Shown: positions 29,031 to 34,801 of the stretch, in pieces | Numbering within the stretch: position 1 is the first letter of the stretch | How the letters are laid out: every line of letters starts with the position of its first letter | IMG/VR virus record: IMGVR_UViG_3300006594_000002 | DNA from: a virus | DNA length: 60,184 bases | Reading direction: 5' to 3' (one strand) | Made by a program: the position numbers and the translations under genes | Notes under the pieces: model-generated | What the model saw: the letters and a program-made list of their open reading frames with translations, nothing else | Database searches by the model: none | Told to the model about the DNA's origin: nothing

Positions 29031-31315
29031 CGGTCATTAATTGGGTTGCCCCAATTATATGATGTTTTGACATCCACCAGAAAGGGAACGGAATTGATAC
29101 CCCAAAGACGTGGGGTCTCCTCCATAGCAGACACCACCAAAGCACTTACATCCCGAATCACACTGGGTTTATCGGGACATTCTACTATAATTGAGTCGTG
29201 CACCAGATCGACTATCCCTGCTTTGTATGGGATCAGTTTAGGGCGTACGCGAATGGCTGATAACAGTGTAAAGTCGGAAGCAGTAGACTGATGGGGAAAA
29301 TTGGCGGCTTCGTTTTGTAAATTCTTTAGCATTTCAGGACTGGGATACTTAGCGCGTTTCTTACGCCCAAAGATGGTTACCATAGTTTTTCCACGCACCA
29401 CGGTGCCGCGACAACGATCTATGAATTCCTTAGCCACAGGAAATCTCTTAAACCAGCCCTCGATCATCCGTCTTGCTTCGCTTACAGGAATGTCGAACTC
29501 TTCGGCAATTGAATATTCTTCTCGGCCATAAACGATACCGAAGTTTAAAGCCTTCGCACGTACATACTGATCACCGTCGTAATTAGGCCCAAATAGGGAC
29601 AACGCAACCTCCTTGTGAAGGCTCATGCCGGGAGTGTTAAAAATGCGCAATAAACTAGGATCGCGGCTTTGTACCGCAAGACTGCGCAGCTCTGCCTGGC
29701 TGTAGTCGTTCTCTAATAAAATAAATCCTGGTGCCGCTCTATACATCCCGCGCAGAGCAGCTTCTCTGGGGATGTTCATCAAATTAGGACCATTACAAGA
29801 AAGACGCCCCGTAGTGGTCCCATGAATTAGAAAAGTAGGATGTACTCTGTTATCGCTGCTTACAAGCTCGAAGTAACCTTTTACGTAGGTGGTGTAAGCT
29901 TTCGACGCTTTCCTATAACGCTGTAGGGCCTTCTTGAAAGGCATATTAGGCCATTTAGACACCGCATCAGCATCGGAGCTTCTTCGTTTTCCTCTAATAC
30001 CCAACTCGTCATAAACATATTTACATACCTGTATCGAACTTGCGGGGTTGATACTATAACCCACAATAGTTTTAATCTCCTGCAGCAACTCCTGCAGTTC
30101 CTTTTCTAACCTCTCTTTGTTCTTTTTCTGCCACTCCCAATCCACATAGAAGCCGCGCCTCTCCACGTGATAAAGAAGCTCACTCGCGGGAATAAGAACT
30201 TTAGTGTAGAGTTTTTCAAGGTGGGGATCATCTGCAACCTCCTTACGCAATAGGTGAAAAATCTGTAGAGTACAACTTACGTCCTTAGCTAAGTAGTCAT
30301 AAAGTACATGTTTAGGCACCGTTTCGTAAGAGGCTTTCTTGTTTGGTAAGTAGGCATCCAGTTCGTTCTTCCAATTAGGACACCCTAGTCTATCTACGGA
30401 AATGGTGTCCAACGCATGTGTACCTCGAATCTCATCTAATGCATAATGTAGCAGCATTGTGTCTTCATCTACCCTAGCACGACATTTCAAGTGCCTAAGG
30501 AAACGGATATCAAACTTTCCATTATGCCACAACCACTGAACAGTTTTACATTCAAAAGCCTCCTTTAACAACGGGATGAACTCCCCTGGCACCACGTAAG
30601 TCATTCTAGGGTCCCAACCGATACCTATACAAAGCACACGATGAGATAAGAAATCGAAACCTGTTGTTTCTATGTCTCCCGCAACCACCTTCTTGGACAT
30701 AATTATCTTGCACAGCTTTTTTACGCCGGTGGGTGTTTGCAAAACCTGAAACTTTGGTACAACATATTTTTTGGTAGATGTTCCATTCACAACATCAAAG
30801 GCCTGTTGAATGTCCCCTTTGAGATGCTTAATACTACCACCTCCCCGAAGGACGAATGCGGGGTGTATAGTAGCCATTATACCAAGTTCCGCAAAGGTAC
30901 TTTTAAGTATTTGTCCGCGTATTTGTGTAATCTTAGCACTGAAGTTGCCGGTGGTAGACCACACAGCTGCGTTACCAAGAGCAATAATCATCTTCCTCGG
31001 ATGAGCACTAAGCTCAGCATGTAAGCGGGCTTGGCACAATTTAGTAACTTTGGCAAGCAGCTGCAAGTTTTTATTTCTAGGTAAGCACTGCATAGCGTTG
31101 GTAATATAGCAGTCGTCTAAGCTAACTCCTTGTGGAAGGCATTTAGTAAGAAGCTGTCCTGATATCCCCACAAAAGGCTTCCCAGCACGAACCTCTTCGT
31201 GTCCAGGGCTTTCGCCGATTATAACTATGGGGGATTTTATATTACCTCTTGAACCTACACGAGAGCCTTTAAAGGGGCACTCTTTGCAGCTGTCACAAGT
31301 ATTCTCCATGTGCAA
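29027..31315 (-). CDS. polA: family-A DNA polymerase with 3'-5' exonuclease and an N-terminal family-4 uracil-DNA-glycosylase-like domain
   Basis: UDG4 domain: CDSCKECPF...IIGESPGHEEVRAGKPFVGISGQLL...IHPAFVLRGG. Exonuclease motifs: VAGDIETTG, WHNGKFD, YLAKDV. Polymerase motifs: A, DYSQAELR; B, RAKALNFGIVYG; C, LVHDSIIVE. Confidence 0.9.
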   Translation of the reverse strand: MHMENTCDSCKECPFKGSRVGSRGNIKSPIVIIGESPGHEEVRAGKPFVGISGQLLTKCLPQGVSLDDCYITNAMQCLPRNKNLQLLAKVTKLCQARLHAELSAHPRKMIIALGNAAVWSTTGNFSAKITQIRGQILKSTFAELGIMATIHPAFVLRGGGSIKHLKGDIQQAFDVVNGTSTKKYVVPKFQVLQTPTGVKKLCKIIMSKKVVAGDIETTGFDFLSHRVLCIGIGWDPRMTYVVPGEFIPLLKEAFECKTVQWLWHNGKFDIRFLRHLKCRARVDEDTMLLHYALDEIRGTHALDTISVDRLGCPNWKNELDAYLPNKKASYETVPKHVLYDYLAKDVSCTLQIFHLLRKEVADDPHLEKLYTKVLIPASELLYHVERRGFYVDWEWQKKNKERLEKELQELLQEIKTIVGYSINPASSIQVCKYVYDELGIRGKRRSSDADAVSKWPNMPFKKALQRYRKASKAYTTYVKGYFELVSSDNRVHPTFLIHGTTTGRLSCNGPNLMNIPREAALRGMYRAAPGFILLENDYSQAELRSLAVQSRDPSLLRIFNTPGMSLHKEVALSLFGPNYDGDQYVRAKALNFGIVYGREEYSIAEEFDIPVSEARRMIEGWFKRFPVAKEFIDRCRGTVVRGKTMVTIFGRKKRAKYPSPEMLKNLQNEAANFPHQSTASDFTLLSAIRVRPKLIPYKAGIVDLVHDSIIVECPDKPSVIRDVSALVVSAMEETPRLWGINSVPFLVDVKTSYNWGNPINDR

Positions 31316-32087
31316 GGATCCCTTTTACATAACCCACGTTATAGATCATTTGAGGATTGGATTCGAGAGACGCTAGGAAAAAGGCTTCACGACTCTTAGT
31401 AGGTGCTAGCTCTATCGAAGGTTTGGAAAGGTCAAGTCTTTTATGTTCCCACCCAAGTCTTAGTGGTGTAGCAGAATCTATACCCATTACATCTGCCATC
31501 CGTGACGCACAGAGGAGATCATCATCAATGTGGTCGGAGAAGCCCATTAAATGTATAGGCTTTTTATAGGTACTATGACCATTAAGCCACCCCACAACCT
31601 CACGTCGGGAGCCATTTATATTCGCATACGCTCTTGGTATTCCCCAAGCCTTTATGGATCTCTCTTTATCATGCCTCCAATAAGCCTCCGTACAGAACTG
31701 CATCTCGTAGTGGGTTTTTCCTTGTATTACTGCGAGAAACCCTCTGCTGCAAAACTCCGCTAGTTCCTGCCATGCAGGATCTTCTAGAGCACTTTTAACC
31801 GCTTTTACACTAGCCGGGGTATCCATTAGAACATCGGGGAGTACAATATACGACGGAGAAACAATTTCTGCCGCCTCTAACATCATAGGGGCATCGACCG
31901 CACCACCTAGTTCTATAAGGCTGTTGTCTAATATAACTATCCCTGAGCGATTTTTGAAGAAATCCTCGTAGAGCTTTGCTTCTTTCACCACGTCGTGGGC
32001 AAGCACAAGCCAGTAGCCATCATCGTAGCCGGCATCACAAAGACTTTTTAAAAGGTGGATGTTGCAAACAGGTGAGTATTTAGCCAT
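31293..32087 (-). CDS. dpdA: DpdA-like DNA (tRNA-guanine-transglycosylase-fold) 7-deazaguanine transglycosylase
   Basis: 264 aa. ILDNSLIELGG and IHLMGFSD occupy the positions of the TGT DSGGFQ and HL.G.G.P catalytic Asp motifs. The gene directly follows queE and overlaps the polA start. Confidence 0.6.
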   Translation of the reverse strand: MAKYSPVCNIHLLKSLCDAGYDDGYWLVLAHDVVKEAKLYEDFFKNRSGIVILDNSLIELGGAVDAPMMLEAAEIVSPSYIVLPDVLMDTPASVKAVKSALEDPAWQELAEFCSRGFLAVIQGKTHYEMQFCTEAYWRHDKERSIKAWGIPRAYANINGSRREVVGWLNGHSTYKKPIHLMGFSDHIDDDLLCASRMADVMGIDSATPLRLGWEHKRLDLSKPSIELAPTKSREAFFLASLESNPQMIYNVGYVKGILAHGEYL

Positions 32088-34137: not shown

Positions 34138-34144
34138 CTCCCAC

Positions 34145-34801
34145 CTATGCTGCGTACACTGTGGGATCTTCAACACCTGCGTCTATAAAAGCCTGCTTAC
34201 GTGATCTGCATGTGGGGCACACACCACAGTGCAAATCTTCCCCTTTATAACAACTCCAGGTCATCTCGAAAGGAACCTCCAAAGAATTCCCTAGTGTTAC
34301 GATTTCCGATTTCATTAGCCATTGTAGCGGCGTGTACAAGCGTACTTTAAAATAAGTACCTACGTGAATAGCATTCGCTATCGCCCCAATAAACTCCGGA
34401 GTGCAGTCTGGGTAAGCCCAATTTTTGGCATCTTCTGAATGGGCTCCAAAATATATAGCGTCGAACCCCCTTGCTTGGGCTAAACTAGCCACATTACCTA
34501 ACAACAAACCGTTTCTGAAAGGTACATACGTAGGTGAAACACCTTCGATCTGGTCATAACTGATGTCTGGGACTTCTGCTTCAGGATCCGTAAGCATAAC
34601 ATTTTCAATTTTCGGGATTTCATGTACCCAATGTGGGATCAAATTCAATGCACATACCTTGGAAGCACAGTCAATCTCTTTCGCGTGGCGCTGCCCATAG
34701 TTAACTGACAGTGCAGCAACCTCGTCAAAATTCTTTTTCGCCAGGTACAGACATGTTGTGCTGTCCAGACCACCACTTAAAAGTACCAAAGCTTTCGACA
34801 T
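34145..34801 (-). CDS. queC: 7-cyano-7-deazaguanine (preQ0) synthase
   Basis: PP-loop LLSGGLDSTT and C-terminal Zn cysteines WSCY...CGVCPTCRSR. At 218 aa it has no fused amidotransferase domain. Confidence 0.9.
   Translation of the reverse strand: MSKALVLLSGGLDSTTCLYLAKKNFDEVAALSVNYGQRHAKEIDCASKVCALNLIPHWVHEIPKIENVMLTDPEAEVPDISYDQIEGVSPTYVPFRNGLLLGNVASLAQARGFDAIYFGAHSEDAKNWAYPDCTPEFIGAIANAIHVGTYFKVRLYTPLQWLMKSEIVTLGNSLEVPFEMTWSCYKGEDLHCGVCPTCRSRKQAFIDAGVEDPTVYAA

Follow-up and report, generated by a model that had tools for sequence, protein, structure and literature searches.

A preQ0 gene cluster with a DpdA3-type transglycosylase homologue and the prediction of 7-deazaguanine DNA in a siphovirus

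7-Deazaguanine-modified DNA is an established counter-defense of phages, and the conversion of guanosine triphosphate (GTP) into preQ0 (7-cyano-7-deazaguanine) by FolE, QueD, QueE, and QueC is textbook biochemistry of the queuosine and archaeosine pathways. Here we describe a viral sequence of 60,184 nucleotides (nt), IMG/VR record IMGVR_UViG_3300006594_000002 (hereafter the window, meaning the whole stretch analyzed), in which these four genes are packed together with a gene for a 264-amino-acid (aa) protein related to the transglycosylases of the DpdA3 subfamily, and which we read as probably encoding a DNA-hypermodification module, combining the preQ0 pathway with a DpdA3-type exchange of guanine in phage DNA. 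The extent of replacement in the systems described so far varies widely: the phages with DpdA1 and DpdA2 replace from 0.1 to 32%, while the DpdA3 phages analyzed by liquid chromatography-mass spectrometry (LC-MS), CP220, phiST, and immuto_2-6A, replace 100% of their deoxyguanosine (PMC10516641). Phage CAjan replaces ~32% of G, at specific motifs (PMC6884629), and the bacterial enzyme, bDpdA, modifies <0.1% of G, in a restriction-modification rather than an anti-restriction system (PMC10164549). The prediction of such DNA in one more phage is in itself not new, and the value of this locus lies in the large unannotated DpdA3 clade to which it leads, and in the association of FolE with a Gpt-like phosphoribosyltransferase (PRTase).

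The 264-aa protein and the preQ0 genes

The gene in question occupies positions 31293..32087 on the minus strand, and its product is a DpdA3-subfamily guanine transglycosylase homologue, predicted to be a minimal TIM barrel without a zinc subdomain, as judged from a family profile, from AlphaFold and Foldseek, and from profile-profile alignment (hhalign). The search with the TGT model PF01702 that a first-pass annotation of this sequence had proposed is negative for this protein (no match at E<=0.01), and a search of PHROG returns a single match, to an unannotated family. A metagenome protein database yields 117 homologues of ~250-280 aa, none with a Pfam domain, and a family profile was built from 84 of these, one of which matches PF01702 weakly (0.0023). 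Compared to PDB sequences, this profile has as its top match the Salmonella DpdA, 7ui4 (E 1.4e-4), with the bacterial TGTs ranking below, and the HLLG and GIDS motifs of the family fall on the HLLG and SIDS motifs of DpdA. The AlphaFold (AF2) model computed on the family alignment (pLDDT 96.8, pTM 0.93) is a barrel of alternating strands and helices, and its three best Foldseek matches in the PDB are TGT structures (E 3.8e-7 to 6.9e-6), followed from rank 4 by generic TIM barrels of similar TM-scores, with DpdA 7ui4 at rank 25. Among the predicted viral structures of BFVD, Vibrio phage nt-1 provides match number 5, a protein of 464 aa that is probably the DpdA2 of that phage, and Cellulophaga phage phiST provides match number 2, a protein of 259 aa (TM-scores 0.73/0.74). 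The length of the latter fits CGPG_00065, the founding DpdA3 of Hutinet et al. (2023).

Profile-profile comparison places the family with the DpdA3 proteins of the literature. Full-length alignments are obtained by hhalign with the DpdA of Flavobacterium phage immuto_2-6A (probability 99.7%, E 1.1e-26) and with the phiST DpdA3 (99.2%, E 1.2e-19). In BLASTP, the window protein is 27-29% identical to the phiST and immuto_2-6A proteins (E 4e-8 and 2e-9), and, because these two share only 22.8% identity with each other, it is as good a member of DpdA3 as the founders are. The founding proteins are 259 and 264 aa in length, the window protein is likewise a single-domain barrel of ~260 aa, and a tblastn search with the phiST DpdA3 finds the same Bacillus phage proteins as does a search with the window protein. 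The profile, fold, and profile-profile evidence, along with the conserved aspartates described below, thus shows the 264-aa protein to be a TGT-superfamily TIM barrel, and its sequence relationships assign it to the DpdA3 subfamily. The fold, on which the first-pass annotation had expected its idea to stand or fall, is of the TGT/DpdA type. Of the precedent it had invoked, phages 9g and CAjan, membership in the DpdA superfamily stands and the DpdA1 subfamily does not, DpdA3 taking its place: with an hhalign probability of 0.2% against the CAjan DpdA1, which is not significant, a DpdA1 identity can be ruled out. DpdA4 can be ruled out as well. Weak matches to its model, DUF6610 (PF20314), are found in 18 of the 84 relatives, all at <=19 bits versus a cutoff of 27 bits, and not in the window protein itself, while the DpdA4 of HVTV-1 (HVTV1_69) scores 190.8 bits, and the alignment of the family with HVTV1_69 by hhalign is partial (36%, 114 columns). 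Isoelectric point and net charge were also considered as clues to a DNA versus a small-molecule substrate, and were dropped as uninformative, TGT and DpdA1 being acidic too.

As to the active site, D54, D85, and D204 are invariant in 84 of 84 family sequences, and D54, N55, D85, R161, H179, G182, D204, and N250 are invariant in a set of nine proteins that includes both literature DpdA3. The active sites of TIM barrels occur at the C-terminal ends of the strands, and in the AlphaFold model D54 and D204 are each found at the C-terminal end of a predicted β-strand, and D85 a few residues past one. D204, within GIDS, aligns with the aspartate of SIDS in 7ui4 (chain residue 276), which would be Asp256, the nucleophile described for bDpdA, if the chain numbering is taken to be shifted by a tag of 20 residues. 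An extended alignment with E. coli TGT, not significant by itself, is in register with the motifs TDSGG, FDEC, QG, YLMG, MFDC, and IHN, and places D54, D85, and D204 on D89, D143, and D264 of TGT. By this register, D54 is the predicted general acid/base, D85 the predicted base-binding residue, and D204 the predicted nucleophile. The zinc motif CxCxxC...H is absent from the 264-aa sequence, with no cysteine cluster after D204, and the CxCxxC segment of TGT falls in an alignment gap; the founding DpdA3 proteins are equally short, in keeping with their being devoid of the zinc subdomain as well.

The remaining genes of the cluster had been named in the first-pass annotation from motifs, and the profile hidden Markov models of Pfam and NCBIfam back all four names. 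The five tightly packed minus-strand genes are where it had placed them (31293-34801), and every motif it had quoted is present in the translations (SGGLDS, CGVCPTCRSR, CSHHMVPILG, HGHRYRIEV, CDYKCTHC, ILDNSLIELGG, and IHLMGFSD). QueC, the preQ0 synthase (34145..34801, minus strand, 218 aa), matches PF06508 (5e-63) and TIGR00364 (180.1 bits, cutoff 150.3), has the SGGLDS PP-loop and the C-terminal CGVCPTC zinc motif, and, as had been noted earlier, carries no fused glutamine amidotransferase domain. FolE, GTP cyclohydrolase I (33403..34071, minus strand), has the CSHH zinc motif and matches PF01227 (8.7e-46) over residues 79-255 of the longest open reading frame (ORF), 34176..33403, which starts from GTG at 34176; most probably the true start is ATG 34071, for a product of 222 aa, because AGGAG is located 9 nt upstream of it. 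QueD, 6-carboxytetrahydropterin synthase (32854..33393, minus strand, 179 aa), matches PF01242 (2.4e-30) and the QueD-like phrog_2389 (2.4e-35), and has the C-x3-HGH motif, while scoring 73.7 bits with TIGR03367, under the cutoff of 89.25 bits. QueE, the radical-SAM 7-carboxy-7-deazaguanine synthase (32087..32857, minus strand, 256 aa), has the CDYKCTHC cluster motif and scores 217.6 bits with TIGR03365 (cutoff 206.1). Overall, QueC and QueE are above the NCBIfam equivalog cutoffs, and FolE and QueD are below theirs, though above the Pfam cutoffs, and the preQ0 pathway is complete, each of its four enzymes having its catalytic motifs. The QueD and QueE genes share 4 nt, QueE shares 1 nt with the gene for the 264-aa protein, the gap between FolE and QueD is 9 nt, and QueC and FolE either overlap or are separated by 73 nt, depending on the choice of the FolE start. 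By this packing, the five genes would form one operon.

Linkage to DNA polymerase and to a Gpt-like phosphoribosyltransferase

On one side, the que cluster runs unbroken into a gene for a fusion of a family-4 UDG, a 3'-5' exonuclease, and a family-A DNA polymerase (29027..31309, minus strand; PF03167 8e-22, PF01612 3.6e-11, PF00476 2.6e-67), whose start overlaps the stop codon end of the gene for the 264-aa protein by 17 nt, and, on the other side, into genes of replication and recombination. On a second contig, the fusion is predicted to have a length of 760 aa. The same fusion is also found 3' of the DpdA3 homologue in three related loci (L005, L006, and L012), and in one of these (L006) it is split by an intein/LAGLIDADG element.

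This arrangement is typical of the family. We surveyed 80 IMG/VR loci carrying a relative of the 264-aa protein, 36 of them at least 16 kb in length, for genes within 10 kb. Among the 36 long loci, QueD and QueE are present in all 36, and QueC, FolE, and a family-A polymerase in 35 each, while no locus has QueF or a formyltransferase (0 of 36 for each), and no QueD paralogue or amidotransferase is found in either the window or these loci. Of all 80 loci, 78 have polA close to the DpdA3 homologue, and the linkage of the family to the preQ0 genes and polA is near-obligate. The gene order QueC-QueD-QueE-(FolE)-homologue-PolA is observed in the Brevundimonas phages StAshley and MaInes, in Weizmannia phage Youna2, in the BSP7/BSTP group of Bacillus phages, and on three contigs from metagenomes; one of these contigs has PolIII alpha in place of PolA. 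The phage homologues in the Brevundimonas, Weizmannia, and Bacillus records are annotated as hypothetical or are mis-named (“integrase/recombinase,” “polynucleotide kinase,” “NadR”). An exhaustive profile search of public metagenomes recovers, from clusters at 50% identity, 5,445 representatives at E<=1e-3, 4,635 of them at E<=1e-10, and the best 150 representatives are single-domain proteins of ~240-300 aa. As these DpdA3 proteins are unseen by the Pfam and NCBIfam models, hypermodified genomes of this kind are systematically missed. Our literature search found no DNA-modification study of the StAshley, BSP7, or Youna2 phages. All contigs of the single-stranded DNA virome of a winter sample have been mapped to the double-stranded DNA phages StAshley and MaInes (GC 50%; PMC10070969), a signal that might reflect modified DNA behaving oddly in library preparation.

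Another gene, distant from the cluster, appears to belong to the same pathway. At 42460..42906, on the minus strand, the window encodes a 148-aa Gpt-like xanthine/guanine PRTase (NF006613, 148.9 bits, cutoff 138), a probable pathway accessory acting in guanine recycling. By tblastn, this PRTase matches 15 of 50,697 phage records, and the named full-size genomes among these are all of the DpdA3 type: StAshley, MaInes, four immuto records, and five of the phiST group; the other matches are three fragments of 2-5 kb and one unchecked fecal phage record of 55.7 kb. The PRTase gene comes immediately after FolE in StAshley and immediately before it in immuto, where it is part of the cluster and four genes upstream of DpdA3; in immuto_2-6A, a nucleoside-triphosphate pyrophosphohydrolase of the MazG type is encoded two genes before DpdA3. 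Of 80 PRTase-bearing viral contigs, 54 have a 7-deazaguanine gene within 10 kb, 41 have FolE, and in 27 FolE adjoins the PRTase gene on the same strand, counts that are lower bounds given the sensitivity of phmmer and that may carry a selection bias, the query alignment having come from 7-deazaguanine phages. Loci with Gpt-like PRTases include L014:1621-2776 (L014 being StAshley), L013:19971-21147, L039, L046, L082, L085, L091, and L094. In 6-oxopurine PRTases, the aspartate of the VDDxxDxG motif contacts the purine N7, and this aspartate is kept in at least 90% of the aligned PRTases, which would favor guanine, rather than a 7-deaza base, as the substrate. The recurrent FolE-Gpt pair suggests a guanine-recycling accessory absent from the published pathway schemes: our literature search found no paper connecting a phosphoribosyltransferase with phage 7-deazaguanine pathways, and the main text of Hutinet et al. 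(2023) makes no mention of phosphoribosyl, PRPP (phosphoribosyl pyrophosphate), or salvage (PMC10516641).

A possible further accessory is a MazG-like nucleotide pyrophosphatase (48806..49300, minus strand), which matches phrog_5658 (“pyrophosphatase,” 6e-56) over residues 39-164 and has no Pfam or NCBIfam match. In sequence it resembles neither the pyrophosphatases encoded near DpdA3 in immuto_2-6A and phiST nor that of the L005 relative, and is thus linked to them by function class only. The L005 relative encodes a PF18909 gene of the dGTP-diphosphohydrolase type.

The proposed mechanism and its alternatives

In the mechanism that we consider probable, FolE, QueD, QueE, and QueC would turn GTP into the free base preQ0, and the DpdA3-type enzyme, co-transcribed between QueE and the polymerase, would swap guanine in the phage DNA for preQ0. 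The exchange would proceed by a TGT-like double displacement, with D204 as the nucleophile, D54 as the general acid/base, and D85 along with Q122-G123 reading the base; a covalent intermediate on an aspartate nucleophile has been demonstrated for both TGT and bDpdA (PMC10164549). The resulting dPreQ0 in virion DNA would block restriction enzymes recognizing G-containing sites, and the Gpt-like PRTase probably returns the freed guanine to GMP and GTP, supplying FolE. As to the product, no QueF, glutamine amidotransferase, ArcS, QueD paralogue (DpdL), DpdN-type formyltransferase, DpdM-type gene, recognizable methyltransferase, or deoxynucleoside monophosphate (dNMP) kinase was found by Pfam and PHROG scans of ORFs of at least ~90 aa, and nothing was found by phmmer among all ORFs of at least 40 aa with QueF, immuto formyltransferase, and dNMP kinase references. 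The earlier observation that tailoring enzymes such as QueF and ArcS are lacking is therefore borne out in the Pfam, PHROG, and phmmer screens of the window ORFs, and so is its consequence, that dPreQ0 is the simplest product, given also a QueC with no fused domain. The virion DNA is very probably 7-deazaguanine-modified. The level of ~30% known from 9g and CAjan is the wrong expectation for this phage, because the analyzed DpdA3 phages show complete replacement; by analogy, this phage may replace far more of its guanine than CAjan does, and possibly all of it.

Several observations weigh against this reading. The prediction of modified DNA is drawn wholly from in silico evidence, no DpdA3 has yet been shown to be active, and assays of co-expression in E. 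coli have failed (PMC10516641). The 264-aa protein has no direct match in Pfam, NCBIfam, or the PDB sequences, the match of the family profile to 7ui4 is modest (24 bits) and confined to the C-terminal half, and the hhalign comparison with E. coli TGT (2.6%) is not significant alone and served for motif register only. The Gpt-like gene is 10.4 kb away from the cluster rather than adjoining it, and ~20 small ORFs without assignment could hide a tailoring enzyme.

The last of these points bears on the identity of the base, which could, though this seems unlikely to us, be dADG, dCDG, or an undescribed derivative rather than preQ0, as a result of QueC stopping early or of tailoring by an unrecognized ORF. 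dADG has been found in phages with no obvious amidase or hydratase (PMC8306585), the DpdA3 phages known to date carry dDG, dADG, or fdPreQ1 and never dPreQ0, and the use of preQ0 by the DpdA3 of phiST or Campylobacter phages was doubted by the authors who described them (PMC10516641). On the other hand, QueC scores above the equivalog cutoff for a preQ0 synthase, and the enzymes that would carry the pathway further are lacking from both the window and the 36 related loci.

An alternative that we regard as equally unlikely, or slightly more so, places the exchange before replication: DpdA3 would exchange the base on deoxyguanosine mono- or triphosphate (dGMP or dGTP), MazG and kinases would cycle the pool, and the polymerase would incorporate dPreQ0TP, with complete replacement as the outcome. 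A number of observations would fit such a route. The enzyme is a bare barrel of 264 aa, with neither the zinc subdomain nor the insertions of TGT and bDpdA; the polymerase gene is its near-constant neighbor; and genes for MazG-type proteins (13 of the 36 long loci), dNMP kinases (5 of 36), and PRTases recur nearby. In addition, the replacement in the tested DpdA3 phages is complete, DpdA3 left the plasmid DNA of E. coli unmodified, and the ADG nucleoside was detected in cells infected by CP220 (PMC10516641). However, the characterized relatives (TGT, bDpdA, DpdA1, and DpdA2) all act on the polymer, the authors who defined DpdA3 favor post-replicative insertion, the window encodes no recognizable dNMP kinase, and its MazG-like gene is 17 kb away from the cluster and unrelated in sequence to those of immuto and phiST. 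If DpdA3-type enzymes did exchange guanine on the deoxynucleotide, and Gpt recycled this guanine to GTP for FolE, the two would form a closed pre-replicative loop; we hold this to be doubtful, and, if true, it would explain the complete replacement in DpdA3 phages and predict a fully dPreQ0-substituted genome here. In a weaker version, the enzyme acts on DNA, and the recycling of guanine through Gpt and FolE may be what makes complete replacement affordable.

The fallback offered by the first-pass annotation, that the que genes serve tRNA or queuosine metabolism, is highly improbable. The que genes would then be auxiliary metabolic genes that raise queuosine/tRNA modification in the host, and the 264-aa protein would be an unrelated TIM-barrel enzyme, for which one could cite the TIM barrels of other functions that appear from Foldseek rank 4 and the failure of any curated model to recognize the protein. 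Against this, the TGT catalytic triad and motifs are invariant, DpdA is the top sequence-profile match, and the protein is strongly homologous to those of phages whose DNA is proven to contain 7-deazaguanine. In addition, tRNA genes are absent from the genome, Pfam scans of the tested ORFs matched no Tgt, QueA, QueG, or QueF, and the gene lies within a replication operon with a polymerase near-invariably adjacent.

Genome setting and comparison with known systems

The window spans a whole genome, with 60,062 unique bases, that either was circularly permuted during assembly or has terminal repeats, as judged from its ends, bases 1-122 being an exact direct repeat of bases 60063-60184 (122 nt). 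The plus strand encodes, over 1-28 kb, a terminase, portal, capsid, tape measure, gpJ-like tail tip, and lysozyme, and the phage is a siphovirus of the lytic type. Upstream of the que cluster, on the same strand, are genes for a helix-turn-helix protein, a DUF669 protein, an AAA_24 ATPase, a PD-(D/E)XK nuclease, and an SNF2 helicase. No tRNA genes are found in the whole 60-kb genome. Megablast searches of 50,697 phage records, with the que cluster and with 25 kb of genome sequence as queries, return no nucleotide match, and the nearest relatives are the Brevundimonas phages, with 39% identity in the polymerase; the lineage is one previously unsequenced. Further features include an HNH homing-type endonuclease gene inside the replication module (39984-40673, minus strand; phrog_374 8e-42), a weak HNH match (PF01844, E 0.012) in an ORF downstream of the lysozyme gene (28162-28620, plus strand), and a Lar-like restriction-alleviation protein (53363-53743, minus strand; PF14354 7.4e-7), which would give this phage a second means of countering restriction, independent of base modification. 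An AT-rich stretch of 36 nt, ATGTAATTATTATAATTAC..., occurs at 28994-29029, overlapping the 3' end (the stop codon) of the polymerase gene, and again at 59224-59259, ~0.9 kb from the right end, the two copies being 75% identical; it could be a regulatory or terminator element.

Of the known systems, DpdA4/DUF6610 (HVTV1_69 of Halovirus HVTV-1, 386 aa) resembles the family weakly and locally, near the HLLG and IDS motifs. TGT (PF01702) provides the best fold match in the PDB, and the TDSGG/FDEC/QG/YLMG/FDC/HN register is kept, but the 264-aa protein is shorter by ~110 residues, is devoid of the CxCxxC...H subdomain, and is found in a context of DNA replication, not of tRNA. The bacterial Dpd system (7ui4; PMC10164549) shares the TIM-barrel transglycosylase fold, with Asp256 and H181-G182 of bDpdA aligning with the family profile, while the equivalents of its Asp95 and Asp130 are outside the aligned stretch of 7ui4 and are placed by the motif register with E. 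coli TGT. It differs in that bDpdA is ~414 aa in length, contains a large insertion (Ins8) as well as a zinc site, and requires the DpdB ATPase, none of which is seen here; no ParB-like/DpdB protein or other Dpd protein (DpdC-K) was matched in the Pfam scans of ~40 window ORFs, beyond which there are small unassigned ORFs.

Similar in genome size and layout are CAjan and 9g of the Queuovirinae (PMC6884629), siphoviruses of ~60 kb with the same four preQ0 genes, the que genes and the transglycosylase being encoded just upstream of the polymerase, and, in the case of CAjan, with the same predicted product, dPreQ0. These, however, have a transglycosylase of the DpdA1 subfamily. The window phage has a UDG-PolA fusion in place of the CAjan polymerase, encodes no preQ0 transporter, and shares no nucleotide similarity with them. 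The closest match is with the DpdA3 systems of phiST and immuto (PMC10516641), in terms of full-length homology, a size of ~260 aa, the same invariant residues, the lack of a zinc subdomain, the position of the gene between the 7-deazaguanine genes and the DNA polymerase, and the presence of a Gpt-like PRTase and a nucleotide pyrophosphatase in the genome. The proteins are only 27-29% identical, and the systems differ in the genes of base synthesis: phiST has DpdL and no QueC, its product being dDG, and immuto adds QueF and a formyltransferase, its product being fdPreQ1, while the pathway in the window ends at QueC, with preQ0 as the would-be substrate of DpdA3. This is a combination without prior experimental characterization, and the clade that pairs DpdA3 with a pathway ending at preQ0, with StAshley, MaInes, BSP7, and Youna2 as culturable relatives, offers the cleanest natural test of both the inserted base and complete replacement.

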